A stretch of 64,000 bases of DNA from Amoebophrya sp. A120 (taxonomy: Eukaryota > Protista > Dinoflagellata), in NCBI GenBank assembly GCA_905178155.1, contig CAJINV010000015.1:1045969-1109968 (forward strand), given 5' to 3'. The position numbers and the translations under genes were made by a program. Under the pieces are notes generated by a model. The model ran no database searches. It was not told where the DNA came from and saw only the letters and a program-made list of their open reading frames with translations. Positions 15,401 through 56,400 of this stretch are shown piece after piece; positions within the stretch are counted from its first letter, which is position 1, and every line of letters starts with the position of its first letter.

Positions 15401-18400
15401 GGGCCCACTCGCGCAGGCGATGCAGACGTTGGCGATGGCCATGATTTGGAAGGAAAAGATCATCGCCATGTCGGCGTTATTGGATCGACCGGTAATGTCC
15501 CCAATGTACCAAAATCCGTCCTTCCAGAGGGACATCGGGGAGTACCTGATAATTTTTTTTTTCCCGATGGAGAACTTGCTTGAGAAAAAGGATCGTCCTA
15601 ATGATCACAGGAAAAAAAGGCATCTACAGATTTTCATTTTCTGGATTTGCATCACGAGTTATCTCTAAATTTATTTTGCAAGATCATACATCAAGACAAG
15701 AACTTCTTCTACAGCTTCTATTCCAAAATTCTATACCATGCGGGCATCGGGTCTTCAACCTTCCGCACATCCAAGTCCGGCTTTTCCGCCTCCCGGCACG
15801 GGACCGTCAACGCAATCACCAGGATGAAAAACGTCACCGCGTTTGCGCCCCAAAACGCGGCCAGATAGATCAGCGAGTCCCGCTGCGCAATCGCGGAGTT
15901 CGGGGTGGTCGTCCCCAGTTTGTTCCGGGCCCCTTGGAAGGACAATGTCAATGGCAACGTCAGTGCAAACGCGAAATCCAGGGTAGCGAATTGCGCGAAG
16001 GAGCCGAACGCGAGCTTGGTCTGCATGTAAATTTTCCCGCAGAAGATCCAGGTCAGGCCGTACACCGTGAAGAGGTAAAATGACGCAATGTAGGTGTCGA
16101 GACACGCGCGACCCTCCTTCAAGATCGTCACGGTTTTCGAAATGTCGTCCTGGTTCGCGACGAACGGTGCCACGACGTTGCTCGTCGAGCCGTCATCGTC
16201 TTCGTTCTGCGCGGAGGACTGTCCGCCGTGCACCAACGCGACCCCCACCTGCGCCTGCTTCAAAGCCCCGGTGTCGTTGCCGCCGTCGCCGCACATGGCG
16301 ATCACGTAACGGGAAGACCGGTCCTGGAAGAACCGGATAACCTTCCGTTTCCCATCCGGCTTGATCCGACCGTACACTTGGATGTATGGTTGCAACTTGT
16401 GCCACAAGGTCGCGTACCCCGGTTCCGTCGTCATTTTGTTAAACGCGTCCGCGGAGATCGCACAAGAGACAAAATCGACACCCCGATGCGTTCCGTGGTT
16501 GTTATGCATTGCAAAAGTATGGTACTAGTACAAATCGCATGACAAATTTTGCCAAGAGCAAAAATGGGACTTGTCATGCTGAAAAAGGTAGACACAGATA
16601 TCTGTTATGCATGAACGCAATTAGTACGAGTACGATGCTTTTGCAAAGGATAGTTGTTCGCTTTCAGCAAGTGGTGGAGTTGGTCCAAATCGCGGTTGTT
16701 TTTGATTTTCGGCTGCACTTTCCCGTCCGGGCCCTGGATGTCGTCCAGCTCTTCCCAAACGGGTAAGTTTTCTTCCGGATTCACGGAAATGCAGAAAGGA
16801 CAGTGCTCGACCAAACCGACCTGCTTCGAGATCGCCACGCCGGTGTAGACACTGTCCCCCGTGATCATCACTGTGTGCACGTTTGCGGCCTTCAGCTCCT
16901 TGATCACGAGAAACGATTCCGGCCGCAATTCGTTCCGGAACAGCGGCATGCCGAGGTACTCGAACATGGACTGGGTCAACACATCGTCGAGCGAAACGCT
17001 ATCCAATTGCGACCAGTCGAGGGCTATGCACTGCAAAAGTATCGCACTCGTAGTAATTGCAGTCATGCATTACAAACCCAACTTTCTACCCAAAGTAGCA
17101 TGACAAATTGCATTTTTGTACTTGAGAGAATTTGTGATGCAATTTATACTAGTACGATAACTTTGCAATGCATAAGGTCCATCTGGGCCTGGCAAAGTCC
17201 CAAAACGTAAAACCCCTTCGAGGAATACGTCTGCGACAAATCCGTCAGTCGCTTTTCAATCGCCTGCTGCTTTTTCTTGCTGTTCGGCGACTGCGTCATC
17301 GCCTCCCCGGAGCAGAGCTTCGTCACTGCCTCCATGGACCCCTTCGCAAACACCGTGACCTTTTTCTTATCCGGGTTCTGCACGTCATGCGTGCAGGTCA
17401 AAGTGACCTGCAACTGCCGACTTTGGTCGAACTTCCACTTGCGGAGGATCAGCGCCTGCTGGTGCGCGGCATCGGGGCCAACCACCATCAACGCAGATCT
17501 CGTGTCCTGCTCCCCGCGGGGCCCGGTCATCGGGATGCTGTAGCGGGTCAGGTTCCAGCCGACGGAGGACAAAGCCTCCTTTTCCAACGGATTCCCGACA
17601 ATCGACAGATCCGGGCCGACGGACAAAGAGTGACAGCAGGCGAGCGCGAACAAAGCCGCGTCGTTCCCGGTTTTGGTCAGTTGCTTGTTGAATCCCACCT
17701 GGTCTCCCTGTTCGAACATGACTTCCGCAAACGCCTCCTTGATGTGTATGGGGTTCTCAAGCGTTACACTCTCAGGTGTTTCATAAATTTGTGATGCAAG
17801 AATGGAAAAAGTGAAAGGGGGTAGGTTGCACCTGTAGCATTACAAATTTCGAACAGATTTAGGTGCTGTTTAGTCCGTCGCAAATTTGTCATGCCAAGCA
17901 GCTTGATCGTGTGGATGATGATGGTGTTTTTGCATGACAAATCCATGTAACAGTTGAGAATGTAACGTTTGAGAACTCCATAATGTGCGGCGCAACGTTC
18001 GAACCCTCAACGATCGACCCGCGCTTTCGCATCTGGGTGACCACCTGCGCCAGTTCCTCCTTCGGCACCGCCGACGCGGAATGACCACTGCTGGTTGTTT
18101 TTTCGCTCTGCTGGGGACTCGTCGGGGAAGACAAGGTCGGACCGGTTGGACTCGCAACGGCGACAATTCCAGTGACCCGATCCGCGTAGGCCGCCTCCGC
18201 ATCCATCGGAGCCCGCAGAATGCCGGACACCTGGGGAATCCGGGCCTCCGAAATGCCCTCGCCCTCGGGACCGTAATATCCCGCCGCCTCCCCCTCGGAA
18301 AACACCCCTCCCGCAACTTCGCCCTCTGCAGCAGCTCCACGTTGCGTATTCTTGTTTCCGCTTGCCTTCTTGCTGGTGGACCGTTTTTTCGGGGTTTTTG

Positions 18401-32200: not shown

Positions 32201-33233
32201 CGTCGTGGCAGAAAATGATGTTGAACAAGCTCCTGAAGTACTATTTCCCGCATGCGGCCCGGTTTCTTCGCCCTCGAAGTAGATGACTGATCCCGGTTTC
32301 ACGTCTTTCACGGTGACAAACCGTTTTGCCAGGAAATGTAGGAACTGGGCCGAGACGTGCTCTAAGAAACCTAGACTATGCAATGCAAAAGCATCCCATC
32401 GTACTAGTACAAATTGCATTAGCCCAGCATTACAAATCAAATTTGTAATGCTGATTTATCTTGAGAGTAAAGAGATTTGTCATGCATAAACGCAATTACT
32501 ACGAGTACAATACCTTTGCACAGGATATAGATTCCGCAGCAGCAATTCGTCCCCCTTCAGTTTCTTCGGCGGGTGAAACCCAGAAATCCCCGTGTTGCTG
32601 ATGTTGCTTGTATCAACCCTAAAAGTATCGCGTAGTAATTCTAATTGCAACTTCGCATGACAAATCTGGCTCCTTTGGTCGTAATTTAGCACGACAAATT
32701 GCACCTGTCTACATGCTGAGCAAATTTATATGATCATGCTGGTTACTACTAGCACGATACTTTAACTTCTTTTGCGATGCCTAGTTTGACTTGTGGAACA
32801 AGTTTTTTCCCTGCCAGTCAATCTTGTATCAACTGTAAAAATGTCTGGGTCTGGAAGATTCTGACACTTGTCATGCACGTTTTGCATGAGCCATGATGTC
32901 TGTGATGCATACCCTAGCAATACAATTTTTTTGAGGGCTTCTTGATGCGTAATCCGCATGACAAATGCCTTCTCAGTGTAGCAAAAATTGCAGTTCCTTT
33001 GGTACTCATGCAATGCAGATTTTTTTGGAATCCAAACGCAGCATCACAAGTTGCATTCTTCCAGACCCAGACATTTTTACATTTGATATCTTGTTGATGA
33101 TGACATTGTGCTGGGCCACCGTCGCGGTCTGGTGGTTCTGGAGTGGATGTTTGTGCGGCGGGGAAGGTGAGGCAGTCGTGCTGGGAAAGGAACTCTGCAC
33201 GTGGATGAGCAAAGGATCTTCCATGGACGTCAT
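23246..33233 (-). CDS. Large low-complexity protein with N-terminal cyclic-nucleotide-binding domain
   Basis: ORF 31805..32440 has PGSVIYFEGE, LYLLKSGII, FFGEFGFL, RVNTAV (cNMP-binding signature). Downstream S/N/G-rich exons join in frame after introner removal (e.g. SLEKHYRR-KKVYDEG) to TAG 23246-23248. Some internal junctions (about 31600-31860) are unresolved. Confidence 0.65.
23324..23680. mobile_element. Degenerate introner, family D
   Basis: D-like TIR remnants; joining at the shared GTAT restores VVIRESEALE; ends imprecise. Confidence 0.55.
23724..25774. mobile_element. Oversize family B introner (2051 bp) with internal insert
   Basis: B TIRs, TSD TCCGC; removal restores HYRRKKVY; 32-bp direct repeats at 23833-23864 and 25696-25727. 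Confidence 0.8.
27452..27617. mobile_element. Introner, family B
   Basis: TSD GACTT. Confidence 0.85.
27642..27866. mobile_element. Introner, family F (TATGAGAGTGCACAACTCCCCCTCCCC)
   Basis: TSD TCGGG. Confidence 0.85.
27948..28235. mobile_element. Introner, diverged family F
   Basis: TSD CGAGT. Confidence 0.75.
28242..28492. mobile_element. Introner, family A
   Basis: TSD GAGTT. Confidence 0.85.
28565..28781. mobile_element. Introner, family F
   Basis: TSD GCGTC/CCGTC. Confidence 0.85.
29588..29847. mobile_element. Introner, family A
   Basis: TSD ATTCT; left end CAT. Confidence 0.8.
30242..30391. mobile_element. Introner, family B
   Basis: TSD GAAGA. Confidence 0.85.
30486..30737. mobile_element. 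Introner, family A
   Basis: TSD GATGC. Confidence 0.85.
32377..32527. mobile_element. Introner, family B
   Basis: TSD TAGAC/TAGAT. Confidence 0.85.
32827..33088. mobile_element. Introner, family A
   Basis: TSD TCTTG. Confidence 0.85.
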
Positions 33234-34211: not shown

Positions 34212-35173
34212 CTACTTCTTCTGCTTGCCCGCGCGACCCAAGTCCTGCAGGTCGCTCGGCACCGCGTAGCTGCGCCGCAAAGCCGCCGCCGGGGGCCTGG
34301 CGTCGGCGTAGGTCATCCCTGGTGGGGGTCGCACACTGTACAGGTGTTTCTCGGCCGGCGAGAGGGTAGGCGTCGTGCGGAAAATAAATGTAGTACCAGC
34401 GCCACACGTGACAACACTAACACTTCGCGTTTTCTACGAAAATAGAGGCCCTCGCCTTTTGCAAAACGAAAACCAAAATAACAACGCAGTCAGATTCAGA
34501 TAAATAAACACGGGTGGGGCGAGGGGCCGACTATAGGCAGCGCAGTTTTTATATATGAAAAGCGCGCCGGCGCCCAGGCATGACGCTGGTGCCTCAACAT
34601 TACGCATGATACGCGTCAGCCGGATGAACTGGCCACCGTCACCGCTGCTGCAGTGGTATGCAATGCAAAAGCATCGCACAACTAGTATAAATTGCATTAC
34701 AAATTCCCCCAGCATTACAAATTCAATTTGTAGTGCTGAGTGACCTCGAGAAATGCATAAATGCAATTACTACTACGGGTACGATACTTTTACACAGGAT
34801 AAGTGGGCCCGGTACGCCGGCGCGTTGGCGACGAAGGAAAGTATGCAATGCAAAAGTATCGTACTCGTAGTAATCGCAGTTGTGCACTACAAATCTCCAT
34901 CCAAAGGTAAAACAGCATGACAAATCTTATTTCTCATGATGAGCAAATTTGTAATGCAATTCATACTAGTACGCTGCTTCTGCAATGCATAGAAAAGCAT
35001 CGTGGCCCGTTCCATTGGATCGGGGGGCCAATACGAATTTCGTATTGGCCCGCCGATGCAGCAGTGGAAACCAACCCTGGCGCGACCGCCGGCGTCTTCA
35101 TCAGGCCAGCGCGGGTCATGAACGTCATCCGGTCGGCGCGCGGCTGCACGACGAATGTGTCTTGAGCGGCCAT
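34212..35173 (-). CDS. Small hypothetical protein
   Basis: ATG 35173 (MAAQDTFVVQ...). Frame is restored across introners 34842-34991 and 34657-34801 (RCFSFVANAPAYRAHCSSG). The last exon ending GKQKK* is inferred across a GACGC direct-repeat intron. Confidence 0.5.
34657..34801. mobile_element. Introner, family B
   Basis: TSD AGTGG. Confidence 0.85.
34842..34991. mobile_element. Introner, family B
   Basis: TSD GAAAG/GAAAA. Confidence 0.85.
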
Positions 35174-38239: not shown

Positions 38240-41200
38240 CCTTTCACGGTCGACGGAATTTTGACTGTTCTTCGCGTAGTGGTAGGTGAATCAGTGTTGT
38301 TTTCCTGCAGCAGATGAAGAAGTTCTTCTTGTTGTGTCGAGGTTTTTTGTTTGTTGTTGTCAAACGCGCCGTCTGTGCCTACGGCAGAATCGAAAACACC
38401 TTGAAAAAGTCCTCGTCCTGGGCAATGATCTCTGCACGGATTTTCTCAGCCTTTGCCATCGCCTCGTCCGCCTCCCTCAGAAGTCGCATCCTGTGTAAAA
38501 ACGCCCCCACCCCAGAGCTGTCATGCAGATTTGCCGTGACAGAAACATTTGTGATGCGCATCCCCATGACAAGCGTTTTCGATCGTGTTTGGGAATTTGT
38601 AATGCTGTACAGAGGACAAGCAGATCGATTTGTAATGCGGCTGTCCTTCCTAACTTGCACTACCTTACGCACTGCAACTTGTCATGCGTCACTTCGAAAA
38701 CTCCTAGGTTTGTGTTGCAAAATGCCCATCGTGACTCTGGGGTGGGGACGTTTTTACCTAGGATAAATCGCTTGTTGTAGGTATCCTTCCTGTCGACCTT
38801 GTACGTCCACTGCAGTTGTATGCTCTGCAAAAGTATCGCACTCGTACAAATTGCGGTCATGCATGACAAATGTGATTTCTAAGCTAAATCAGCATGACCA
38901 ATACCGCTTCTGCTATTGCCAAAATTTGTGATGCGAATTATAAATATTGCTAGTACGATACTTTTGCAATGCATAAGTTGTTTTTTGTGTTTATTTGTTC
39001 CCCCTTTCATGCTCCCGTGCTTCAACTCGTCGAGCAGCTCCTCGTGTTTCGACGGATCCCTGATCTTCTCTAGCATCGCAAAGTCCACTGTGTCATTATG
39101 ACATTCCTTCTGGTCACAGATGAGACAGTGAACGACAATATGGATTGCAAAAATGTCTGGGTCTGGAAGGATGCAACTTGTGATGCTGCATTTGGGTATG
39201 GATTCATCTACAAAAATCTGTATTGCATGAACAGCAAAAGAGGTCCAGTTTTTGCGACGGCGAGAGGGTATTTCTCATGCGGTATAGGCATCAGGAAGCC
39301 CTCATAAAATCTGTGATGCTAGGGGATGCATCACAGACATCAGGGGTCATGCCAAAGCTGCATCACAAATCTCTGCATCCTTCCAGACCCAGACATTTTC
39401 GCATTTGATAGACAACCGTTTTGGCCTGCATGTACACTTCGTCATATATTCTGCGGAGCATCTATGAGAGCGCACAGCTCCCCCTCCCCCTCATTTGCTT
39501 TTGCATTGCATGAACAGCAATACAAACACCAGCACACGTGGAGCCTGTGCATGACAAACCCATGCGCCTAGTGCAGTACTGTTTGGGCTTCCCCAGGAAT
39601 GTGTCATGCAAACAGTGCCACGAGGGACAGGGAGCGACTGGATTTGCGGTTTTGCATGACAAATGAGGGGGAGGGGGAGTTCTTCACTGTCATAGCATCA
39701 ACCAGGGCGCAGTGGGAAAGGGTCGGGCACAGGAGATGTACTTTTCTGGGGGAAATTGCTTGCCTGTTTTATGTATCCTGTGCAAAAGCATCGTACTCGT
39801 AGTAATCGCAGTTATGCATTACAAATCTAGTTGGTTAGGTAAATCCGCATTACAAATTTAATTTGCAATGCTGAGCCAATTTGTATTGCGATTACTATAT
39901 ATTATATTCATGCGAAAAAAGAGGTAGACAGAGGGTAAACAAGAGGTGGCCGAGAGGTCAAAAAGAGGTCAAAAGAGGTAAAAAAGAGGTCGACAGAGGT
40001 GGAGAGGTGGCGCGGGACCCCTTTCGAGAGGGCCGGCGAGAGGGTGCGCGAGTATAGCCCGCCGAAGGACCCACCCTAAGGCGGCGCCTAAGTGCCTCAG
40101 AGGGTGCAGAGAGGTCAAAAAGAGGGGGCGCGAGAGTTCGACAGAGGTGGCGAGAGGTGGCGCGAATAAGGGGCGACCTCTCGCGGACCCTCTTGGCCAC
40201 CTCTCGGCCACCTCTGTCGACCTCTACCCGCGAGTATAGCCGGATTATTAGCGGGGACCCCCAAAAGAGGCCAAAAAGAGGGTCTGCGAGAGGTCTGCGA
40301 GAGGGTAAAACACAAAGAAGCGGGCGCGAATCCGCATGGCACTACCCATATTTGGCACTGCAGGCCATTCGCGGAGCTGTTTTGTTCGGCGCCTTTCCGC
40401 GCCACCCTCTCGCGCCACCCTCTCGCGCACCCTCTCGCGCCACCCTCTCGCGCTACCCTCCCCCGCCGGGCGGTTTCTGTTCGCCCCCGGTGGTCTTTGC
40501 AGCTGCTCCCTGCGCAGAGCGCCCACAGGCGCGGGAAGCGCGCAAGTGGTCCTGCGGGTTGGCGCGGCGCAATGTGTTTCGTTGTGCATAGGCCCGCGGG
40601 GTTGTGGTCCTATCGGCAAACAGTCTTGCCCCGACCCAACAGCCTTGCGCTCCGGCGGCAGCCGGAGCATGGCTGGTTTGTACTAGTGCGATGCTTTTGC
40701 AGTGCATATTATGTGACACATTCAGCTTCAGTTCCTTCACGATATCGAAGACCTCCTGCCGCTTCTCGACCTGGGTTTTGTGCTTGGATTCCTTGTTGTG
40801 TTCGCAACTCCATTCCGTGGGTTTGTGTTTCGCGTTCCGGCACAACCGGCACTATCAACTGCAAAGCTGTCTGGGTCTGGAAACTTGTAATGCTGCGTTG
40901 GGAATATTGAATGCTCTGTAATGCACAGGCAAGCATGAGAAATATCTGCGCTTCTTTGTGTTGCGTTTTTCGCATGACAACCTGCGTTTTTGCATGATAG
41001 GCAAAAGGATCTCTTCTTGGACACGCATCACAAACTTTTTGGTCATGCCAGACAAGCATGACAAATCTCAAAATCTTCCAGAACCAGACATTTTTGCATT
41101 TGATAGGCACTTGAATTGGACGATGCCGGCGTTGTCCGAGGCACAGTAGCTGTTCATTTTCCCGTATCAAAAGTACAAAAAAGTTCGTCACGATCACTCA

Positions 41201-44200
41201 TTGGGATGGGCATTGTCGCAATACAAAAAATGCCTGTCATGCGTAAAAATGCATCACAGCCAAACTTCATACGGACTCTCTCTATAGAAGTGTTTCTGCA
41301 ATACAAGGAAAAGTTGTGATGCTAAGAAAATTTGTAATGCAAAACCTCCAAGCTAGTGACTGTGACAAACTTTTGTCTGTCCATATCTCGGGCCGCACAA
41401 CCGCACAGTATCCGATGAGGTCCTGGTTGAGAAACAGCCGATTTTTCGTATGGAAGCGTCAGGATCGAAATCGACAAAGTCGAAATAATCTGTCATGCAG
41501 AAAATGCGACACAAAAAGTGACTCTATTGCAGAGAACAACGCAAAGGAGGCAGATTGTAGTCCTGCTAAAAGTCAAGAATTGGGCTGGTGGCTAGCATGA
41601 CAGAGGGGAGCTCTTTTGCCCTAAACCGCATGACATTGGTGGTCTACGGGCAGGACGTCCCGGTGGCACGACGGCCGATAAGCTTACAAATTCATTCATT
41701 CATTCACGACCCTCGCGAGTCAACGCACTTCCGATGGTGCATGCAGAAACACAAATGACAGATTCGCTTCCAGGACGAGGGAAATGCGCCATGCGCCGAC
41801 TAAAAACTGTAGGTCTAACTGGCATCGATTTTGTGCATCGCAAGTTTCTCGATTTTGTCGATTTCGATCGTGACACTCCCATACTTCGCCGTGTTGAAGT
41901 AGAGGAGATGTTCGTAGTCTTGGTACTTGTAGTACTTCAAAAAATTGTCGAAGTTCAGCTTGTTCAGCGTTTTCTATGAACTGCAAAAGCATCGCACTAC
42001 GTATGAATTGCATGACAAATTTCCTCAGCATGAGAAAGAAAATTTGTAATGCGGATTTAACCTGAGAAAGAAATTTGTAATGCATGAATGCGATTAGTAC
42101 GTGTGCGATACTTTTGCACAGGATATTTTCCGCGGGTCCACGACTTGACCGGTGTCCTTGTTCGGTGCGGTTTGCTTGTTTAGGTCGAACATTTGGTACT
42201 GGAGCTGCTTGTTCTTCTTCACCTCTTCCTTATCCCTGTCGGCCTGAAAATGCCAGCCCCGTTTCTGGTCCCACAAGGGTATCAAATGTAAAAGTGTCTG
42301 GGTCTGGAAGAATTCATGTTTGTCATGCTTGTCTGGCATGACTCCTAAATCTGTCATGCACGTTACCCAAGAGCTCCGCTTTTCTGTGATGCAGAAGCGC
42401 AGTTTGTCATGCAGAATAGGCAACACCTAGGAGCTCAGAAACTTGTCATGCTGAGCCAGCATTTGTAGCCTCATCATGAGACGCCACCCAGCATCACAAG
42501 TTTCCAGACCCAGACACTTTTACATTTGATAAAGGGCTGACCGTGTCGATTCGTCCAGTAGTCCTTCATTCGGTTCTTGAACTTCCTCGCGCGGAGAAGC
42601 CGCGTGGTGCATGGGATTCTCAACTGTTACATTCTCAACTACTGCTACATGAATTTGTGATGCAAGAATAGGAAAAGTAAAAAGAAGGAAGCCTGCTGCA
42701 CCTCCCGCATTACAAATTTGGCACAGAGAAGTTTCATGCTTTTTAGTCCTTCAAAATAAATTTGTCATGCATACCCGACTGCGCCACATCGAAAACCTTT
42801 GCACCGTCGCCGCAAGCAGCTACGGCCGCAGGAGATCTAGGGTCAGAACCGCGAAAAACATCGCGAGTATTTCTTCATCCCCGGGCACTTATGTTATCTT
42901 TACCGTACTTCTCGCTAACACTGTATGAGCTGCTGCAGACACACTGTGACAGGGAAAAACACAGGCGCCACAATACTAGAACCCACTTTCTAAATAGTAT
43001 ACGGAAAACTGGCAGGCACCTGTCGCACAAAAGAAATAGCAACAGGCGCGGGTACAGAGTCCGAGAAAGTTTTGGCTAGCTTACGAGGAGATTGCTGATT
43101 GAAAACCAACAATGCTCGTAGAAGGTGTCACAACTGGCGTCGACAGTTGTGAGAAGAGCGCACCTGATTGGCAAGACAGCGAAAACGGATTTACAGGCCG
43201 CGAAGCGTTCTCATGTGTGAAAACCTGCCAAACCGTCCGTAGCTCACCTTCTTCAAGCGTTCGTGGCCGCGAAGTCGTGGGCGTAGCATGATGAAAGGTA
43301 GACGGCTGGGCTTTCTCATCGAAGGCAGATTTCCGTCTGCGAGCATCTTCTTCAACAGCGGCCAGAATTCAGCTCGCGGAGAGGGTCGCCGTCCTCTCTC
43401 CGGGTTTCCGCTGTATGTCCTCTCGTGCCACCAACTATCTCCGCCCCGGAATGGGGCTAGCCTAGCTCGCATCTATTGTGCGCCCTTAGCTCGCGATTGC
43501 GAGGCTAGGGAACAAGTCTCTATTGGACTTGTTGCTATTGTGGCTAGCCCTCCCCCTCTGCTCGTCGGGAGAGAAGATTCGCACCGCTTCGGTTCCACTT
43601 GTCACGCACGTGCTAAATACCGCTTGGAACTGCCATCCGTCTGCCCTGGCTCTGCGCACCGAGAAGCCCCGGCGCCATCTGCTCCGTGCTCTCTCCCCTG
43701 GCTCTGGCTCGGCGCAAATGCTTTGCGCGGAGGAGTTGGCAGCAACGCATCTTTATTGCGTGCCCCTACACATCTTTATTGCGTGCTTACGGGAGCGAGC
43801 CATCTGGATTGCGGCTCACTGCTGCAAACTCCTAGCGCGCCGCCGCATTTGCAACCTACCTCCCTCCAGCGGGGGCCGCCTTCCTCACAGGTCCGCCCGT
43901 GCCGACCTGATTTATCGCTGACACCCCGGGTAGCCCACCATCGCCGCGCCGTCGGCTGGTTAGTCCGGTACCATGGCGGTCGCTGCTGGGACGATCTCCG
44001 GCGCCGCCGTGTCTTGCTGACGATGTACAACTTGGGCGAATTCCCGTGGAAGAGTGCCCGCAGCCCCGCACAAAATCCAGTCGAGCCACCGTGCGCAGCG
44101 ACACGGACACCAGCCCGCACATAATCCGCAGGACATTTTTCCAAGAGGAGCAGGAGCACACAGACGTAAGGGTCGCAGCTCTACTGCAGATCAGGAGAAA

Positions 44201-44992
44201 AGAATGCGAATGCTGAATAGCGGAAGAGAGAAAATAAGCAAAAACGAAAAATGTCGAGGAAACCTATTGACTACGTCGGGCCTCTAAACTACTGCAATCT
44301 GTAAAGGCTAATGGTATGCATTTACTCACGCAGAGGGTCGCTGTCGGAAAAATTAACTGTGCTCAGCGGATCCCCCCCACCACCGGGGCAGGGGTTGGCA
44401 TATTAAGGATCTTGAGCCAAAATGGCTACGGAGTGGCTTTCTCGTGTGGATGCTCATGCTGATGTCGATCTCGATGTGGATTCTGCATTGCAAAACTTAT
44501 GCAACAGTATGAGAATGTAACGTTTGAGAACTCCATATGGTGGCTCTGCCGATCAGTAGGTCGGGGTGGATTTCAAAGCCGAAGTCATTCTTGCTGTTCT
44601 CTTTGTCCGCGAGGTACTCGGACGTGAACTCTGGGTCGATGGGTTTCTGCGCAGGAAAGAGCTGCTTCTGGACTTGCCGCAGCTGCTGTTGCGCAGACCG
44701 ACCTTTGGTTGTCAGGTCCAGCACCGAATATGCATTGCAAATGTATCGTCCTCGTAGTAATCCTAATGCTAATCCTAATCGCAGTCATGCAAAGTATACA
44801 AATCTCGTTTTCGTTCCCAAGGTATCCATTAAAGCAGCATGGCAAATTCCATTTCTCATGCTGGGGAAATTTGCCATGCGACTTCCACTAGTACGATAAC
44901 GAGACTTTTGCAATGCATACCGAGTCCGGTATGTCGATGTCCCGCTCGGCCGCTTTTGCGCGGGTAGTGGTGGAAGCGGACGAGGACGGCAT
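38240..44992 (-). CDS. Hypothetical protein with matrin/U1C-type C2H2 Zn-finger-like motif; 3' end unresolved
   Basis: ATG 44992 (MPSSSASTTT...). In-frame joins across 10 introners; CRLC-x13-H-x5-H (CRLCRNAKHKPTEWSCEHNKESKH) and a second CLIC motif. Junctions around 41170-41880 are not resolved. Confidence 0.55.
38487..38765. mobile_element. Introner, family C
   Basis: TSD AGTCG/AATCG; left end CAT. Confidence 0.8.
38819..38975. mobile_element. Introner, family B
   Basis: TSD AGTTG. Confidence 0.85.
39139..39410. mobile_element. Introner, family A
   Basis: TSD GACAA. Confidence 0.85.
39463..39694. mobile_element. Introner, family F
   Basis: TSD GCATC. Confidence 0.85.
39774..40708. mobile_element. 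Family B introner carrying Helitron-like insert
   Basis: B TIRs, TSD TTATG. Confidence 0.85.
39892..40676 (+). mobile_element. Non-autonomous Helitron-like element, copy 1
   Basis: Inserted between A and T with no TSD; 5' TTACTATATATT; 3' hairpin GCTCCGGC-GGCA-GCCGGAGC then CTGG (CTRR); near-identical to 54405-55172. Confidence 0.7.
40853..41105. mobile_element. Introner, family A
   Basis: TSD GGCAC. Confidence 0.85.
41975..42125. mobile_element. Introner, family B
   Basis: TSD TTTTC. Confidence 0.85.
42280..42531. mobile_element. Introner, family A
   Basis: TSD AAGGG. Confidence 0.85.
42610..44537. mobile_element. Oversize family E introner (1928 bp) carrying an SL-headed insert
   Basis: E TIRs, TSD TGGTG; arms homologous to 17747-17982; removal restores GRATTRLLR. 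Confidence 0.85.
44411..44432 (-). other. Dinoflagellate spliced-leader sequence (genomic copy)
   Basis: Minus strand reads TCCGTAGCCATTTTGGCTCAAG, matching DCCGTAGCCATTTTGGCTCAAG at 22/22; followed by ATCC, not GT. Confidence 0.92.
44729..44919. mobile_element. Introner, family B
   Basis: TSD CCGAA/CCGAG. Confidence 0.8.
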
Positions 44993-47950
44993 TTTCTTCA
45001 CGACACGGATGGAGATACTAGTGCACCAGTTGCAGATGCTGAAGTTGAACTGCGACTGCGAGTGTGATATATTATACTTATTTCCTGGACTACAACTTCT
45101 TCTCGCACAGGTGTCGTCGTGGCAAGCACTGTTAGTACGTAGTAATGCTTGTGTCTGTCCCCAAAAGTTCTTGCTAGATCTCGTGGTTCGCAGGGGGGGG
45201 GTGTCGTCTTCGTGCTCGATGTCGATTTTTATGTGAGTCCCGTACTATTCTTTGGCTCTCCTTCAATACAACGCGCAGGCGAAGTGCTTCCAGAGTGCTG
45301 TAGTAGTCTTTGATCCTACCAGCACTGCTACTTAAGTACGCGACGGTCGTGTTGATCAATACGCGCAGGTCGTGATCGATGATGTTTCCTTGAAGATACT
45401 AGTGCCACTGCTACTTCACGTTCAGGAAGGTTTGATGTGCTGGCCGTCCAACAAATGATCCACTTCTACTCCAGAAGATCAGGAACACGACCAGCGCCCT
45501 CGACCACGACACAAATTAATATCGGTCGTTATTCTAGTACTCCACCGGCGGGGATGAACCAGCCGCTGCACCTACATGAACTACAGGATGAAGAGGACGA
45601 TGTAAAGAAAACGCTGGCAGAGCAGCACGGGTATGCTGGTTGAAGATGCTTCGGACGAGTGGGTGTCCTTCGATGATCTCCTGCTCGTCGAGGTGCAAAA
45701 CTGAGCACTAAGGCTGGAGGAAGTCTGAGCACAGAGTCTGCTCCGTCTCGCTCCGGAAAATGTATGTGTATTCGCGCGGGAGAAAATGTATGTGTATTTG
45801 AATCGGAATCCAATCTGCTTGAAGAAAAACACGACGGCCGCGGGGGCAGACTCGTTTTCGCCAAATTATTGCCCTAGACGAGACAGGTGTAGGACAAGAA
45901 GGTCGTCGTGTCGCTTGTACTTACATTGTAGAAGTTCAGGATTCCGTTCTTCCAGAATAAAATTTGCCCGACTAAGAAGTCGAGTGGGTATTCTTTTTAG
46001 TACAACTCGCGACAACTTTGGCCGCTGCGTCGTTCCGGATCCGGTCGATGTGCTTGTTTGCGGATGAAGATATTAATTTGTTGAAGATGATTCTGGCAGC
46101 CGAGGAACCAACTACGATAATTGGTGGTCCGCCTCCTAGTCGTGGAGCTGGTTGTCCGGGCTTTCCTTACCGTTCGCGGCTAGTACAACGTCGAAACTAC
46201 AAAACTGGGCTCGGCAAACTGCGTGGAAATCTTCAGATTGCTTGGTAGTTGTACACTGTTTGGCTTGTTGCGAAGGAACTCTTCTTGGAAAATTTAGTTT
46301 TGTCGGTGTTCGAAAGTAGGTCGCATAGTACTATACTATCTTTAACCACTAGTGTTGACAGATGGGAATGGAACAAGTACGACTGTGCTCTTAGACCACG
46401 TAGAGTCTCTCTCAGTTGTCATCTGGTTCTGGTCGGATGTGACGCATACAAATTTTCAGAGTCTGCACTAGAGAGGGAGGAAAAATGGCTTTTCGAAATA
46501 ATATGAAGTGTAAGCAAGAAGCAGTCAACATCGGTTCTGTTTTTTCCTTGATTTTTCGGCCTTTCAATTGCTTCGCGGCGGAAAGGAGCAGGCGGATAGG
46601 TGTCACACAGTTGTGGCGAAATACGACGGGAAGCTCTACTTCTGCAGCTTTGAACCCGGTTTCATCTCTTTGCTTTGCTGTTGCAAAAAAGTAGATCCAG
46701 AAGATCATACCCTCAGATGAACATGAATCTTCAAACGTTGTAGCCAATCATATGACGCTGTGACAGTTTTGCATTCCTGTAGGAATTGTGGTGAGCCACG
46801 TACTAGGCAACATCGTATAATGTTTGCACTTTCTGTTTCATCTCTTTCATCCACTTGTACTTCTTGTTTCTGAACATGCCGCCGCGACAAGAACCGGAAC
46901 ACAGTACTACCACAACAAATCGACGTCCCCTGACTGCAGGTGCAGCACTACATTTTTATAGCTGCAAGAAGCAACTACACAATACTTCTAAACCGGATTT
47001 GCTTTTTCATCTCCTGAAAATACCTAGTCCTCTTGCGTAGGATTTTTCTGCGTTCGATTCTTCAAAAAATAAGTAGCATCTGTCGAGGCTCCTCGAAGAG
47101 CAGCGCCGCGCCGAGCTTGAAAAAATCCTTTGTGATAAATTTGTCGTGTCGCTGAAAACTAGTACGCACTTACACCGCTACGCGGACCACTGCGACTCGC
47201 TGCTATCAAAAGATACAGATGCAGCTGTCTATAGAGCAAAACTTTCGTACTCATCACAACTGGAACTTTTCATATCACGCCTGGATTCTTCGTCCAGCAT
47301 ATCATGGTCGAGCAAAATTTTTCTACTGCTCTCTATTCACACGCCTCGTCGCTTTTCAAAGTAGTAGCTGTCGTTGTCAGAAGTGGTCGTGTAAATCGAG
47401 CGTAATTATGGGCGGAAAATGTGACTACAATGACTCATAGTAGCCAGGAGGGGACGACCTCTCCACGGATTCAACATCCTCCGTTGGTCGTACAGAAAAG
47501 GGTGATACGTAAAAATGAAGAGTCGTCCAGAGATGACAGGTCGGGGAGGAAAGTAGAGTAGTAGACCTCCGCATTAAAGGAGGTCCTTCGAAAAGTAAAT
47601 AAAAGTAGCTTATATAAAAGTGTGTGCCAACAATACAGACAAGACAGCTACACACCAAATAATCCTTCGAGTGCGCCGTACCAATCAAGACTTGGCCTAC
47701 ACTTCTGAAAGAAAAGGTTTGTGGTGATGTTTGCAAGTCAAGCCCGCTCCTGCTCCCGTTGGAAAAGTTGAACTCGTATAAAAATTTGCGGTCGCCGAAA
47801 TTTTTACTCAGCCCGAGAATATGTTGTCAAATTTTAGACGTTGGTATTGGTTTTTGTTGGATGCGTCCCTCAGAGTAGTACAAATACTACTGACATCCAT
47901 AACTCAAAAGTAGAAGTGAAAGTGAGGAAACTGAAGCAGCAGAGTTCTTG

Positions 47951-48162
47951 TATCCAAGAAAAAAACACCATCACAATCACACTTAGGAGGTTTTGCATCA
48001 GAAATTTCTCTCGCATGACAAATTTTTCTTGTAATGCAAAAACCCAAAGGGAAATCACCAATAACTCTTTACTGTGATGCATTTTTGCGCATGACAAAAA
48101 TTTTAATTTTTGTATTGCAAAAATGCGCATAAGTGATTGTGATGGTGTTTTTTTCTTGAATA
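47951..48162. mobile_element. Introner-type element, family G (TATCCAAGAAAAAAACACCATCACAATCAC), in presumed AGXT 3' UTR
   Basis: About 30-bp TIR, TSD TCTTG, 15 nt past the stop codon. Confidence 0.8.
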
Positions 48163-48177
48163 TCTTGTTTTCTTCCT

Positions 48178-51119
48178 TTACAAACTCGAGCTGGGGTTTT
48201 TCACCGCTTCAATGCACTCCGCCAACGCGGCGGTCACCGTTTTCACGTTCATTTTGTTAGAGTTGTACCCCATGAGCCCGATCCGCCTATCAAAAGGAAA
48301 AATCCCCCCCCCCATATCGTAATGGAAATCTGTGATGCAGGATTTGTGTACACAAATCGGATTTGTCTTGCGGTAGAGGGCTGCAGACAGATACAAAGCC
48401 CGGAAAGGGGTGGCTTGGGGTAGGCACTTAGCATGGCAGACGTCTGCCCTAGTAGCGTAGCAGCATTACAAATCGCCTGCGAAATGCACCGGAGGCCCTG
48501 GCTTTGCTCTCTTGCAAGACAGACTGGTTGAGCTGGGCGACCTCAGATGGCACCCCCGTCCCGAATTTCTCTTGATTTTTTAAGATTTTTTTTTCAAAAA
48601 AAAAATTTGGCAGGCCACTCGTCGTCGGGTGCCAACGTTCGATGGCCAGCCGCGAAGCTAAGCTGCGCTATTCTACTAGACCTCTCTGGTTCTAGTGCTG
48701 CTTTTATTTGCAGCTTCTCCGCATTACAAATTGCTGCTTTCTTGTCTACTTCCAACGATCTTTTTCGGTATCCCTTAGAAGTGGCGACGTATCCTCACAA
48801 AAAGTGCTCACTTTTGATGGCCAAAAGTGAACTCCAAAAAAGTCATCTTTTCCCATTTTTACCTCAAAAAAGTCTCTCGATTTTCTAGAAGGTGAAACCG
48901 AAAAAGACCTGCAATAATTGAGAATATAAGTGGGAGAGGAGACTTTTTTCTAGACTTTTTTTTTGGGTATGCAAGGTCGGAAGACGAAACCGAGGAGGAA
49001 AAACAGGAGACTTTTTTGGGAGCTCAAAAGTGATCATTTTTGGCTTCCAAAAATGTGCACTTGTTGTGGGGAAAAGCTGATGCTTGCTTTGGTGAGTGTT
49101 TGATGAGTCCACCACACCAACTGGAATAGCATCGACGCAGCATGCCGTGCAGTTTCGACTCAGCAAACGAGTTAGGAATGCGTAGCCACCTTAGAAATTC
49201 ACCTGACGACGTGAGTCGCAACCTTTTTCCCAGTGCAAAGTAGGACGAAAAATCCCAAAATTTTTTTTGAAATGATGATATTGGCAGTGTGCCCTTTAGC
49301 GGACTGCTGCGTGCTACTCCCTCCTCCAGCCCGAGAGCAGCTGAACGCCGATCTTCTATGACGAACAGTTTTTTTGAAAAAAAAATCTTAAAAAATTGGA
49401 AGAAATTTGGAAGACTTTTTTCATCTGAGCCGCCCAGCTCAAGACTGGATGTGTGACCACAAATTAGCATCACAAATTTCGAAAAGCGCGCCTTTTCGAT
49501 ATGGGGAGGGGGGATTTTTCCTCACAATACCGCCAGCACTTTCCCTTCAAGCTCCCGAGCGCCGCCCCGATCTCGATGTCAAAGCGGTCCCGCATCAGCG
49601 CGATCACCTTCATGCCGTCGCCGCACCCGTCCGGGATTTTGATGGTTGTCAAAGACGGTAACCGGATCTTTTCATCCACGTACGGCTCGCACCCGATCTT
49701 TTTCAACTCCGCCCAAAAGTACTGCGCGTTGGCCAAATGGCGCGCGTGGGAATTCTCGAGACCCTCCTCCGCGACCAGCGTAAGGGCTTCCCGCATCGCG
49801 TAGGCCATGGTGATCGGGGCCGTGTGGTGGTAGACGCGCGGGGCGTTACCCTCCACAACCATATACTTTTTTATCATGCTCATGTCCAGGTACCAATTTT
49901 TCACCTTGTCTTTCCGACTGTCCAGCTTTTTGAGCGCGCGCTCGCCGAGCGTGAGTGGGGCGATACCCGGGGGACAACCCATACCTGTTGTAGGTAGAAG
50001 TTTTTTTTTCACACACTGTAAGTACTAAATCACTGACTTGGTTGATGTGTCGTATTTCATCTGCATAGAAAGAACGAGCACCTACTCGTTCACGTGAGGA
50101 ATCTGAATCTGAGGCGTGATCCACCGGTACCATATGAATTTCAACTTGAATTTTTGGAACGAGTGATTAATTATGATATGATAAAGTAGAAATACATTTC
50201 TGCCCGCCCGCGTAGCAAATGTCGACCTTCCAATCGTCCAGGTGGATCGGCACCCCGCAGATACTTGTTACCGTATCCAGCATGAGGAGGCAGTCGTGTT
50301 TTCGGCACAGTTCGCCGATCTCGCCCACGTTAGGTTGCAGTGTACCTGTATTTATTCATTAAGGAAATTTGTATTGCGTCATTTCAACATGATCCATGTC
50401 TATATATGGGGTTGCGTTCACAATCACATGCGACCTCCCATGCATGGCAGAAAACGATATTACCTGTGCTGGTTTCGGCATGGCAGATCCAGAGCAGCTG
50501 TGGTTTGTATTTTTCCAGCCCGGCCGCTACTTCTTCCACGGTAAAAACCTCGCCGTAGGGCTTGTCAATGCGCTCGATTTTGTCCGTATACCGTCCGTGC
50601 ATGTCCACCGCCCGCTCGCCGAAATAACCGTTCACACAGATTAAGTGCGTGTCCCCAAACTCGGTGCAGTTTGCCACGCCGGCCTCCCACGCGGCGCACC
50701 CAGTCCCAGAGACCGGAACAGTAAACAGGTTTTGCGTTTGCCACATATACCTTTCATTATATTTCAATCTTTTAATTTGAGGCATCCATGGCGTTTATTT
50801 GCATGACTGACAGAGAACTCGATACGTCTAGTACCTTCTTCATCAGCACCACAAATTCATAATATTTTTCGATTGCCCAATAAATTTGTTCCATGCATGT
50901 TGCTATTTTCTTCACGTTGTACCTGAGCATGTGCTTGATGTCTTCCACGATGCGCATAAAATCGGCGTCCAAGTGCCCCACCTGCTGCAGCGCCATGGCG
51001 GCGTGCACGCGTGGGTGCGCATTCTGCGGCCCCGGTCCGAGTAGCAGGCGTTTCACGGGAGCCAGCTGCGGCTTCACCAATTTGGTGTCCAGAAGCGGGT
51101 TTTTCACAAAAAGGCCCAT
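48178..51119 (-). CDS. AGXT: Alanine-glyoxylate / serine-pyruvate aminotransferase (class V PLP enzyme)
   Basis: LLLGPGP, VSGTGCAAWE, VNGYFGER, HAETSTG, PPGIAP, WYLD, YHHTAP, WRIGLMGYN; C-terminal SSL*. An upstream in-frame ATG lies at 51335. Confidence 0.9.
48288..49529. mobile_element. Oversize family D introner (1242 bp) in AGXT
   Basis: TSD CCGCC; restores KCWRIGLMGYN. Confidence 0.88.
48528..49442. mobile_element. Nested non-autonomous TIR element (Mutator-like MITE)
   Basis: About 75-bp imperfect TIRs (TTGAGCTGGGCG…CTCAGATG…TTTTTAAGATTTTTTTTTCAAAA); flanking AGACTGG direct repeat. Confidence 0.7.
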
Positions 51120-53452
51120 GGTTTGTTTTGCAAGGAGAATCTCACGGTTCTTTTTGTTCTTATGATTTTGTTGATCGGTGGTTTTAATATTGGTGTTCTT
51201 AGTCACATCAATTATCGGATTTTTGTAGGAGACGGACACATGAGCCGACGTAGCGCTAGCAGCCTGCCGCGTTTGGTATTGCGGAGGGACCTCAGTGGTC
51301 GGGGGTGCTTGCTTATTTTCGCTATCTGACTTCATGATTTATTTTGGACAGAAGTAAATGGAATGCAGTACTTATCAAGCACGACGAAAGAGAAAAGCAA
51401 GATGTGACAAAATCAAGATGTTCATGTTGCCATCAACACGAGGAGAAAAATCCTCACTATTAGGTGCTTGTTGTTTTCATGTGCCGTTTCAAGATGTTCA
51501 GATCGTGGCGTAGAAAAGGAAGGCGCAACTAGTAAGAAAGACCTGATAGATATGATTCGACACGGCTCGTGCTCGGTTGATGCTAATTTCGAGATCCTGA
51601 TGTAGGAGCCGGCAAGGAAGTTCTTTCTGCGCGTGTTCCTGCTGGCACTGCCGTCTTGTTGCTTTTCGCAAAAAAGAAAAATCCCAACACTATACGCGCT
51701 GAACTCAGCGGCAGGTTGAGGCTCATGAATACACGTTAAAGTTTATGTTTACACAAGTAACTACTAACTTAATGTGCGCCACAAGGTTAAAGACTGTTCC
51801 TTCTAGAGCTGCCGGCGTGCAAGCTCAACTTTTGCGCGATCTTAGTAGAGGTTGTAAATGGTGGGAGGTCCTGTGATTTGATTGATACGACAACGACGGA
51901 TCAAATACAATACAATTTGCTTGATACGACGGACCACAAAGTAGTAAAAGTGTGTCAATCGACGCAAGCACGAATGTTGAGATGAATCTGAGTAAAACAA
52001 GTTCTTTCGAGACAGTGAAGGTACAGAATTCATCTGCTGTCCGATGCAGTTCGTTGCACGAAAATGACGTACAACTGCAGGCTAGCATATTAGTATTACT
52101 TGAACGTAGTTTTTTATCTTGTGTGTACGTCTGGTGCTCTCAGAGTCGCGCGCCCGAGATGAACGAAGCTGCGTCATCTGTTTTTTTCGAATAAAAAACC
52201 ATACCGACCTGACCTCCTCATAACGGTTACGACGCAACTGACTGCCCTTTCACTACAGGCACAGAATGAGTTGAGGGATAATTCCCTGCAAGAATCGGAC
52301 GTTTTTGGTATAGGTACCACCCGATATGACGACCCACGCGGAACAGAAGATGAAGATCTTCATGGCAACGAGAAAAATAAAAGAAAGAGCAGTCAGTCAG
52401 TCGCTCTAGTACAGTGCGCTTCTCGCCTTCCTCGTGTAATCTAGTGCGCGGTCAGCCCATCGCTCGTATCTAGGGCGCGACGCGAGCAGGTTCTTCCGCG
52501 CCTCTGTCCACAGCGTTTTCCTTGTCAAGTCTTGTCAGAAGAGGGGGGCGCTTCAACCTCTAAAAGAAATCTGCAAGACAAAATATCGGGGTAAAAAGAA
52601 AGAAAAGGAAAATGACTACGCTATCTAATGGTGGTCAGCTTAATGCGACAAAAAAGGTTTTTTTGTTATAGCATTAACTGTACAGATGAAAAGAACCTTC
52701 CCGAGTCTTTTTTTAAACAAGCACGACGGACTGGAGGGGGGGCCTCAGGTTTTGTAGTCCAAAGACAAGATGGAAGTAGACCGACGACGACGATAGTGTG
52801 TGAATAAAAACCTGCGACGAAATACTGGATGGAAAACGTGAAAGTTCGAAGTTGTGACGAAAATCAATTGTGTGCTCGCTTCTTTAGGCGAGCGAGTGAC
52901 TGTTGTACGTGCTAATTGAGTTCCTGAGAGTAAGTGGCTAGCACACTGTGTCTCAACAATGTGCTACCAGTACTTGACCATTGTGACGAAAATCAAAATG
53001 AGTGCAAAAAAAGCAAGTGCTTAAAAATGATGGACTGGCATCGTCGGTGCCGCAGTTCCATGAAAAAATGAAGAGAAACGTAGAAAGTACAGGTGAAACA
53101 AAAAAAGGAAATTGCAAACAAATCGGAATGAAGAAACCGACCCACTACATCTGAAGCGCTTACTTTCACCCTACCCGCGGCGGCAGTGTAGGATCAGGTT
53201 GAGGACAAGGTAGGGCGACGGAACAAGGGAATAAAGAACGACAAAGAGGAAGGGCCCATACAAAGAAATAAAAGTTTCATTTTCAATAAAATTAAAAACA
53301 AGGACAACGACAAGCGCCTCGGTGTTATAGTATCTTCTTGTTAGCCGTACTATACCATTTTTCGGGATGATGAAAAAGCCAGTTGTACTTCCCACTACAT
53401 CGACCCGGTTGTAGCGTCGCAGCACGAGTTGATGTACTATAGTAGTACTCCT

Positions 53453-56400
53453 TCACGACTGCGACGACGTGCTCTCTTCACACTTCGCGGTCTCGCCCTC
53501 CGCCTCCGGCTTCCATTCGCACGATTGGGTCCCCGGGGTAGCAGCGCCTTCGCAGTCTTCCTGCGAAAGAAGTTTGTCGCAGGGAATCTTGCCATCGGGG
53601 AGGGTCACCCCTCCGCCCACATCGCCGCTGCATTTCGCAAGACCGGACCCAGCGTCCATGGGAATCGGTCCAGCGTCGCAACCGTAGTACTCGCACTCGA
53701 CCGCGTCGCCCCACAGTGTGTTATGCGAGTTTCAACGGTTACAGCTGCAGCTGTTGTGATGCCAGAATAGTAAAAGTGCAAGGGGGGCGCTCCTTGCACT
53801 TGCGCTTCTCGCATTACCAATACCGTTGCCCGGTGGATCATCTCCATGCTATTTGACCCTTCGAAGATTTGTCATGCGAAGTGGCTTATTCATCATGTCA
53901 ATGCAAATGCCGATGGTCATTTTGCATGCCAAACGATACAAAACAGCTGAGAACGCAACGCTTGAGAATCCCGTACGAGTCGCAGTTGAATTTTTGTTTC
54001 GGGAGATCGGGTATCAAATGCAAATATGTCTGGGTCGGGAAACTTCTAATGCTGAGTTGGACATAGTGAGTGCTCTACAGTAATGCACAGCCAAGCATGC
54101 GAAATATAATTTTCGTGCCTACAACAACGTGTTCGACGCGTAGGCGGTCTCTTCTTGGACACACACCACAGACTCTGCAGTCATGCCAGACAAGCATGAC
54201 AAACCCTGCATCCCTCCAGACCCAGACATATTTGCAGTCGGTATCGGGAAGGGTAGCGATGAATTATCCTGTGCAAAAGTATCGTACTCGTACTAATTGG
54301 ATTGCTAAAAATATGCATGGCAAATGTTATGTTCTGCCTAAGGCTAAGGTAATAAAACAGTATTACAAATTCCACTTCTCTTCTTGCCAACGTTGGTAAT
54401 GCAATTACTACATATTATATTCATGCGAAAAAAGAGGTAGACAGAGGGTAAACAAGAGGTGGCCGAGAGGTCAAAAAGAGGTCAAAAGAGGTAAAAAAGA
54501 GGTCGACAGAGGTGGAGAGGTGGAGCGGGACCCCTACCTTTCGAGAGGGTCGGCGAGAGGGTGCGCGAGTATAGCCCGCCGAAGGACCCACCTTAAGGCG
54601 GCGCCTAAGTGCCTCAGAGGGTGCAGAGAGGTCAAAAAGAGGGGGCGCGAGAGGTCGACAGAGGTGGCGAGAGGTGGCGCGAATAAGGGGCGACCTCTCG
54701 CGGACCCTCACTCTTGGCCACCTCTCGGCCACCTCTGTCGACCTCTACCCGCGAGTATAGCCGGATTATTAGCGGGGACCCCCAAAAGAGGTCGAAAAGA
54801 GGGTCTGCGAGAGGTCTGCGAGAGGGTAAAACACAAAGAAGCGGGCGCGAATCCGCATGGCACTACCCATATTTGGCACTGCAGGCCATTCGCGGAGCTG
54901 TTTTGTTCGGCGCCTTTCCGCGCCACCCTCTCGCGCCACCCTCTCGCGCTACCCTCTCCCGCCGGGCGGCTTCTGTTCGCCCCCGGTGGTCTTTGCAGCT
55001 GCTCCCTGCGCAGAGCGCCCACAGGCGCGGGAAGCGCGCAAGTGGTCCTGCGGGTTGGCGCGGCGCAATATGTTTCGTTGTGCATAGGCCCGCGGGGTTG
55101 TGGTCCTATCGGCAAACAGTCTTGCCCCGGCCCAACAGCCTTGCGCTCCGGCGGCAGCCGGAGCATGGCTGGTTTATACTAGTCCGAAACTTTTGCAATG
55201 CATATGAATTGCGGCACAACAAGAGGGGCGGGAGTAACGGTAGTACTCACCGTGCACCACCCCTCGCCGGCTTCCGAAGTGAGGAAATGTCCACCGGTCT
55301 GAAGGGCAATAGAGCTTTCCGCTTCCAGTTTCAAATAGAAAAGCTCCGCGGAGCTGGTGACGTTTGCTCTAGCTGCCGCCCATTTCGTTTTCTCCATCCA
55401 CATGCAGGTCGAGGCAGAGGCTCCCGCCCCCTTATGAGAGCGCACAACGAAGAACAAGAACCTGAACCCCCCCGCCCTCCCTCATTTCTTAATAATGTCC
55501 TGCATTTTGAAATACCAAATCCACAGCTACTTTCCTGTAGGTTTACGTTTACTTTAGGCTCTGTCGTGTGCATAAAAAATTTCGGAACCTGCAGGTGCAG
55601 CTCAAACAGTATTACAATCTGTGTGCGGAAAATGAGTCCTGCTCATGCGGAGGCCACGTTCTACTTTCATCTCGCGCTGCAGCTTGTGTAGTTCTCCTTG
55701 CTGCGCGTGCTGCCCTTCAAATCGGCGGGGAGGAGTAAAAAGTTCAAGAACGTCGTGCACTCTCATACTGATCGCAGGCTGGCCGTACCTTGTTGGCAAC
55801 ACCATCCAGAGGTCTTTCCGTCTTCTCGAGACGCCGACATCCCGCCCACGCATCATCCACCCAGCTTTTGCAGTCCCCCGGGTAAAAGCCCTCACCATGG
55901 TAAGGTTCGTCAAACCAGCACTCCTTGGGATCCGCTAGTATGCATTGCAAATATGTCTGGGTCTGGAACGATGCAAGGAGGTTTGTCGTGCTTGTCTGGC
56001 ATCATGGTACGGTATGGTTAGACTAGAAAGAGGGTCTGTGATGTTGCGTGAGCGTGATGTACAGGGGCGGACGCTTTTGCGTGTCATGCGGAAAACCAAT
56101 TGTGTGCTCGCTTCTTCAGGCGAGCGAGTTACTGTCAAAACCAAAACGCAACACTGAGTGGTCGCGCATATAAATATTTTATACTTATTTATTTCTCACA
56201 CGGCTTGGCCGTGCATTTTCTTCACTGACACTGTTCAGAAGCTGCAGAAGCAGAATTCAGTATTACAAGTTTCCAGACCCTCACTCGGACATATTTGCAG
56301 TGCATAGCGAGGCATGCCTTTCCAAGTGCTTCCTTCTCTTCCGAGCTTGACTCCGCTGTCAGGGGTGCCACGTGCTGGATCTTTTTCTGGCACGCGCATA

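Follow-up and report, generated by a model that had tools for sequence, protein, structure and literature searches.

A Helitron-like element probably inserting at one base of family B introners in Amoebophrya sp. A120

Two near-identical, GC-rich elements were found within a 64,000-nt stretch of the genome of the marine parasitic dinoflagellate Amoebophrya sp. A120 (assembly GCA_905178155.1, contig CAJINV010000015.1, positions 1,045,969 to 1,109,968), called here the window, whose own numbering is used throughout. They are probably (we estimate about 0.62) copies of a non-autonomous rolling-circle, Helitron-like element of ~770-900 nt that inserts independently and site-specifically within the right inverted repeat of family B introners, 32 nt from the host's right end. 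An earlier sequence-only reading had described the two elements, their 3' end with an 8-bp hairpin and CTGG, their 5' TT, an insertion between A and T without target-site duplication at the identical nucleotide next to the B terminal inverted repeat, and an empty site at about 17149. All of these observations were borne out, as was the divergence of the hosts relative to their cargo (71% against 98.6% identity).

Element copies, their hosts and the internal features are as follows:

39892..40676, plus strand: inserted element copy 1, 785 nt, 62% GC, non-coding, 5' TT, 3' CTGG
54405..55172, plus strand: inserted element copy 2, 768 nt, 61% GC
39774..40708, no strand given: host 1, family B terminal inverted repeat introner carrying copy 1; 150 nt when empty; 5-bp duplication TTATG at 39769-39773 and 40709-40713
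54265..55204, no strand given: host 2, family B terminal inverted repeat introner carrying copy 2; 172 nt when empty; 5-bp duplication TGAAT at 54260-54264 and 55205-55209
40649..40668, plus strand: 3' subterminal hairpin of copy 1, 8-bp stem and 4-nt loop, followed by 4 nt and CTGG at 40673-40676
55145..55164, plus strand: 3' subterminal hairpin of copy 2, followed by CTGG at 55169-55172
39915..40000, plus strand: purine-rich short tandem repeats with units of 10-21 nt, which pair with inverted copies deeper in the element
40398..40460, plus strand: 13-nt minisatellite of variable copy number

Structure of the element and its insertion site

The two copies are identical at 749 of 760 aligned columns (98.6%), and most of their difference in length is due to the 13-nt minisatellite. 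No third full copy is present in the window. The 3' terminus consists of a perfect 8-bp stem with a 4-nt loop, a 4-nt spacer and CTGG. This is the sole position among 1452 on both element strands where such a hairpin is combined with CTRR, and the combination occurred at 0 of 20000 positions in the shuffled control; the same filter was also passed by three A+T-rich sites elsewhere in the window. The hairpin is identical, and CTGG terminal, in all four copies aligned, and the 5' terminus is TT in the three complete ones. As single-stranded DNA, the element is predicted to fold strongly (z -7.4, 0 of 20 shuffles), largely because its short repeats stand in both orientations.

The search for coding capacity gave no Pfam match in the three scanned open reading frames overlapping copy 1, no tRNA and nothing else recognisable in the element. 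In Rfam there was no match at the gathering level, the 13 weak matches, all far below it, being generic hairpins. These results bear on the possibility that the element, read on its minus strand, is a target-specific sequence resembling a short interspersed nuclear element (SINE) and copied by a site-specific non-LTR (long terminal repeat) retrotransposon, as Tx1L targets Tx1D. Non-LTR elements targeting other transposons are known (PMC1950540, PMC8869645), and the minus strand of the element ends in an A+T-rich stretch. However, every copy read is precise at its ends, with neither a variable tail nor a target duplication, the polymerase III head is absent, including a B box, and the minus strand holds eight runs of at least four T, which makes such an origin very improbable.

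Within copy 2, two 4-nt insertions at ~54533-54540 and ~54707-54714, absent from copy 1 and from a third copy on a metagenome contig (locus L001, see below), both follow GGACC and resemble short duplication footprints. In the three testable cases (copies 1 and 2, and L001 at 5137-6030), the element is antisense to the open frame of the surrounding gene, a number too small to judge.

The window is rich in short elements with terminal inverted repeats. Family B copies are ~150 nt long, most with 5-bp direct repeats, and they show the terminal inverted repeats and the direct repeats of 3-5 nt that mark Amoebophrya introner elements. The junctions read GCGA|element|TTTGTACTAGT in copy 1 and GCAA|element|TTTATACTAGT in copy 2, where the bar marks the point of insertion. 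Both insertions lie at an A|T step 32 nt from the right end of the host, and removal of the element restores the site GC(G/A)A|TTT(G/A)TACTAGT. The restored site stands empty and exact four times in the window, always in B inner ends, with a chance expectation of 0.00:

17139..17153, plus strand: empty target site in the B copy at 17025-17174 (the one noticed in the sequence-only reading)
16524..16538, minus strand: empty target site in the B copy at 16503-16652, in the GCGA|TTTG form, as in host 1
32403..32417, minus strand: empty target site in the B copy at 32377-32527
34681..34695, minus strand: empty target site in the B copy at 34657-34801

All three complete copies fit the empty sites with no target duplication at the element junctions, and the presence of TT at both junctions leaves the element ends ambiguous by up to 2 nt. 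Moreover, each of the three complete hosts (hosts 1 and 2 and that of L001) bears its own 5-bp duplication and has intact outer ends. Two other delimitations were rejected: an element with a 5-bp TACTA duplication, whose shorter form occurs in no B end of the 14 empty copies, and an element ending at the downstream CTAG, which disagrees with the empty sites. The exact downstream 11-mer is present in four of four filled sites and in four of the 14 empty B copies (Fisher P 0.023), and together with the upstream part in three of three against four of 14 (P 0.051), which hints that site choice reads the sequence and not the position alone. The empty junction of the host 1 type was also recovered from the public runs X1 and X2 at depths of 433 and 313, which is ~10x the single-copy depth.

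An ordinary Helitron inserting at any A|T, with selection purging all copies outside introns, can hardly account for this pattern. Helraiser does use AT with only a loose A+T-rich preference (PMC4778049), and insertions into exons would be harmful. Selection, however, might enrich for introns but could not single out one base in one family, and is contradicted by junctions at the same base, in a window where B elements make up just 4.2% of the sequence and AT steps number 3857 per strand.

Two further B copies depart from the usual form. The copy at 38819-38975 carries ~7 extra nt at 38934-38950, near the target site, which could be an excision or repair footprint. The copy at 10534-10858 holds a different insert of ~175 nt in mid-element (10640-10815), of which no second copy was found in the window.

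Further copies and the independence of insertions

Metagenome contigs were scanned with a 30-nt pattern lying wholly inside the element and therefore unbiased as to flanks. Two loci were recovered, L001 and L002, both inserted at the same base of a B end, so that all four copies read as sequence share one insertion point. The copy in L001 is complete (894 nt) and 94.5-94.7% identical to the window copies; its host represents a third kind of B arm, 77-79% identical to the window hosts. L002 comprises the 3' end of the element only, followed by TT. Public contigs were aligned to the element 3' end (42 in X1, 49 in X2 and one each in X7 and X9), and 18 of the 93 pieces were listed. Of these 18, 11 span the 3' junction, every one of them running on into the B repeat. 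Three of the spanning pieces are single-copy contigs of 765-1216 nt found in both X1 and X2, with letters unlike both window copies, and one is a contig of an estuary metagenome. The share of 3' junctions running on into unlike sequence was 0.02 in X1 and in X2. The ratio of contig depth to single-copy depth suggests, as a very rough estimate, 26-31 copies of the main type and about 15 variants, depth being no true copy number.

No match was found in the prokaryote genome scan, and viral scans with the element 5' end and with the B repeat gave none either. A viral scan with a 16-mer gave six matches, which lacked the hairpin and were dismissed as chance.

The arms of hosts 1 and 2 are identical at 107 of 150 positions (71%). 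For comparison, 78 pairs of empty B copies had a mean identity of 77.5 (sd 4.8, range 69.8-91.7), so that the three complete hosts, 71, 77 and 79% alike pairwise, resemble random empty B pairs. For copies 1 and 2, host divergence and element divergence differ with a Fisher P of 1.7e-26. The tree of B arms comprised 16 rows, without the B copy at 32377 and without the B end at 27617, which was left out because its partner end was unmatched. Loaded hosts were grouped in 0% of 200 bootstrap trees, and the loaded state needs three changes on the tree. The approximately unbiased (AU) test spoke against a grouping of the two window hosts (p 0.012) and of the three hosts (p 0.047). The hosts of copies 1 and 2 differ as close as 2 nt before the junction and at the fourth nt after it, so that no flank was co-copied between them. 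These copies are only 14.5 kb apart, which may reflect local hopping or the choice of the window.

Several points weigh against independent insertion of a Helitron-like element, to which the unusual ends, the missing partner and the introner table treated in the last section are to be added. The three-host AU value is borderline, and only one of 13 inner branches of the tree is well supported. The left flanks of copy 1 and L001 have 11 nt in common, and the two also agree at element position 7, at which copy 2 differs; copy 1 is nevertheless closer to copy 2 than to L001 inside the element. The 5' junction was read in only three copies, and the tally of strict flanks rests on 18 of 93 pieces from the public runs. 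Finally, two non-standard 3' flanks were seen among 13 of 14 loose-end rows. The first of them begins with TT, and its first 11 nt are identical to positions 33-43 of the left arm of L001, after which it diverges; the matched stretch would be the mirror site in the other B repeat. The second follows a variant element copy in X2 with T and then A, and resembles a motif common to introner families. Targeting therefore appears strong, but not absolute. The claim of independent, target-specific insertion made from the sequence alone is supported in that loaded hosts are no closer than random B copies and never group, and is qualified by these two flanks and by the shared left flank.

The shared 11 nt also keep alive a homology-driven route. 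Under this explanation, one old insertion gave rise to a composite B element, which was spread by the B transposase or by homology-driven copying (gene conversion or, possibly, RNA-guided homing) and exchanged its arms with other B copies. The host ends are intact, so such composites could move; the B arms look mosaic in a poorly resolved tree; the first 7 nt of the element, read together with its left flank, are the same as the other B repeat type has at its inner end; and Fanzor-driven homing has been described for several transposon groups (PMC13565253). However, copies identical at 98.6% would require that both arms were replaced very recently, to within 2-4 nt of the junctions, between sequences that are 70-80% alike. 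There is also an empty allele that agrees with host 1 to either side of the junction, the flanks of two copies are of another kind, and a hairpin with CTRR exactly at the element end is not predicted. A composite origin is therefore regarded as unlikely.

Rather improbable, too, is a recombinase with a 2-nt TT core (an IS607-type serine recombinase or a Crypton-like enzyme), with one TT derived from the target and the other from a circular element. It would agree with TT at both ends of the three complete copies, after the end in L002 and at the start of one odd flank, and recombinases would naturally be strict in their site and leave no duplication (PMC13565253, PMC3627910). Against it stand the X2 variant, in which T is followed by A, and the lack of inverted symmetry around the core in the target or the joined ends, as judged by eye. 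The 3' hairpin with CTRR would also be left unexplained.

Splicing of the loaded introners

The exons adjoining host 1 are:

40711..40851, minus strand: exon upstream of host 1, residues 226-272 of a 416-aa A120 protein
39693..39773, minus strand: exon downstream of host 1

These exons are joined in the published A120 protein CAD7968659.1, which reads straight across the loaded introner, so that the 935-nt loaded element is an intron in that gene model. Judging from the non-canonical ends, we infer that the model rests on RNA reads at the host 1 junction. Two raw RNA runs, X12 and X13, gave one and five reads on the host 1 region, which is almost no cover, and no spliced read was seen among them. 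The contig from X7, whose RNA origin is a guess, carries the 3' junction and is not taken as evidence of transcription.

The reading frames are consistent with removal of the loaded introners. Both loaded hosts contain 7-11 stops in each minus-strand frame, and taking out the host together with one duplication leaves exactly one open frame per locus, of 73 codons for host 1 and 97 for host 2. The same removal leaves one open frame in L001. Likewise, in an ATPase gene of the window, four of four B copies are absent from the published protein, three of them removed with exactly one duplication. A 569-aa open reading frame of the window is 98% identical to an A120 protein, and this protein can be aligned to the window exon by exon. 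RNA folding of the two loaded introns predicts that the outer repeats of the host remain paired in each. For host 2, a word-index search with nearby exons found no protein record, a blank that means little, since the same kind of search missed the host 1 protein found by a full HMMER search. A match to bee mucin was dropped as chance, having no match back to the window.

Splicing would remove the element from the mRNA together with the host intron, and the published protein model backs this for host 1. To that extent, at host 1, the earlier proposal that introners serve as safe havens is supported.

The gene of the 416-aa protein (38663-44992) has ~10 introns of several introner families and very short exons. 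The protein had no Pfam match, and the exon searched had no credible relative among 1.84 billion representatives. Near host 2, the 20-nt stretch at 54245-54264, between a family A element and the host, appears to be a micro-exon, its frame continuing a Cys-rich protein.

Relation to known systems and proposed mechanism

HLE1 elements are marked by insertion at A|T, absence of a duplication, a hairpin and CTRR (PMC11417382, PMC4778049); Helraiser cannot do without its left end, and its hairpin has a role in termination (PMC4778049, PMC11417382). The element resembles Helibat and Helraiser in these marks and, moreover, in the absence of terminal inverted repeats and in its internal minisatellites; its 20-nt subterminal hairpin falls within the 16-20 nt of the group. 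Rolling-circle copy-and-paste is therefore favoured. It differs by a 5' TT instead of TC, a hairpin ending 8 nt from the terminus as against the 10-15 quoted for canonical Helitrons, and its target: HLE1 elements use any AT, and canonical Helitrons require just an AT step, whereas the element uses one base in a 15-nt site of another transposon. Neither a RepHel partner nor any other mobilising enzyme was found in the element reading frames or the scan hits, which included no longer, autonomous element. Support for the Helitron identity proposed earlier comes from the end structure, namely the 3' hairpin, CTRR and insertion at A|T without duplication. Since the 5' TC is lacking and no partner is known, the element is not filed as a member of HLE1.

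The asymmetric inverted repeats of 8-17 bp typical of HLE2 (Helitron2/Helentron) are absent, the longest match between the first 60 and last 100 nt being 5 bp, and so is the 5' hairpin, the first 60 nt folding at -0.7 and -2.2 kcal/mol. Insertion at T|T, as in HLE2, fits the four aligned copies if the ends are shifted by 1 nt; one variant copy has T and then A. Replitrons (PMC10288648), which are protist HUH copy-and-paste elements, are similar in their right-end hairpin, mostly absent duplication and orientation-specific insertion. They differ in their RG target, fuzzy ends and short direct terminal repeats; the element has no such repeats compatible with the empty sites, because the TACTA after its right end is already part of the empty site.

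Few eukaryotic DNA transposons are strict in their choice of target (PMC8869645). The telomere-associated Helitrons of Paramecium (PMC13085455), also an alveolate, share a non-canonical end motif and internal satellites, and are proposed to integrate, with specificity for sequence and strand, where a repeated target makes the insertion harmless. That target is the telomeric repeat; these Helitrons terminate 3' in CCAA and include autonomous copies, whereas here the target is a miniature inverted-repeat transposable element that forms introns. Tx1L in Tx1D of Xenopus (PMC1950540) is likewise one transposon nested in another, occupying a fixed position in a multicopy target, but is a non-LTR retrotransposon. 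Dada (PMC3706591, PMC8869645) also uses a fixed site of multicopy targets, but is a DDE element that makes 6-7 bp duplications in RNA genes. Neither Tx1D nor the RNA-gene targets are described in those sources as spliced out.

Host family B fits the introner elements reported for A120 (PMC7789003, PMC12130899) in its inverted repeats, 5-bp direct repeats, non-canonical ends and removal from mRNA. A second element at a fixed site within introners is not described in the available portions of these papers, and 'helitron' occurs zero times in those of PMC7789003 and its supplement. Amoebophrya and Helitrons were found together only in PMC12130899, whose introner table mentions Helitrons 18 times, never in an A120 row, 23 of the 58 A120 rows having been covered. 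The literature searched described no Helitron-like insertion fixed to one base of an introner or of another transposon; most subscription journals and Repbase lay outside the search, so absence is unproven. The strategy accordingly has precedents in Tx1L and the Paramecium Helitrons, with none found for the pairing of a Helitron-like element with an introner. Elsewhere in the window, a single-copy block of 70% GC at ~5085-6900 (single in the window and loci compared) has at the end of its minus strand a 7-bp stem, followed by 5 nt and a CTAA that precedes T, and is possibly a second Helitron-like family.

For the favoured Helitron-like element, a RepHel or other HUH enzyme encoded elsewhere would nick the left end; one strand would be peeled off until the hairpin stops the transfer, and would then be joined into the target. 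More tentatively, the target may be chosen by mimicry, as the B inner end A|TTTRTACTAG resembles the element left junction A|TTACTAY, the two sharing A|TT and ACTA. Mimicry would allow one nicking specificity to serve donor and target, perhaps aided by a B hairpin exposing single-stranded DNA. It leaves unexplained why the other B repeat type, whose inner end equals the left junction, is not seen as a target. Loaded hosts may also move whole by means of the B transposase.

We give somewhat less than even odds to the further interpretation that the element is a dedicated hyperparasite: the HUH enzyme of this rolling-circle family would recognise 15 nt in the introner inverted repeat and insert at one base. 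The insertion would leave intact, immediately outside it, the part on which splicing and transposition depend, letting the element be spliced out and carried by its host. That a structured insert of 770 nt is tolerated 32 nt from the end in a gene model suggests that the outer 32 nt of the B introner carry the splicing signal, and the loaded introners offer a natural probe of the splicing route of non-canonical Amoebophrya introns. Targeting of another transposon at one base means that introner bursts open up room for second-order parasites; it also suggests that Amoebophrya has an undescribed site-specific enzyme. If the hyperparasite interpretation is true, this would be a sequence-specific, duplication-free DNA integrase system of a eukaryote.

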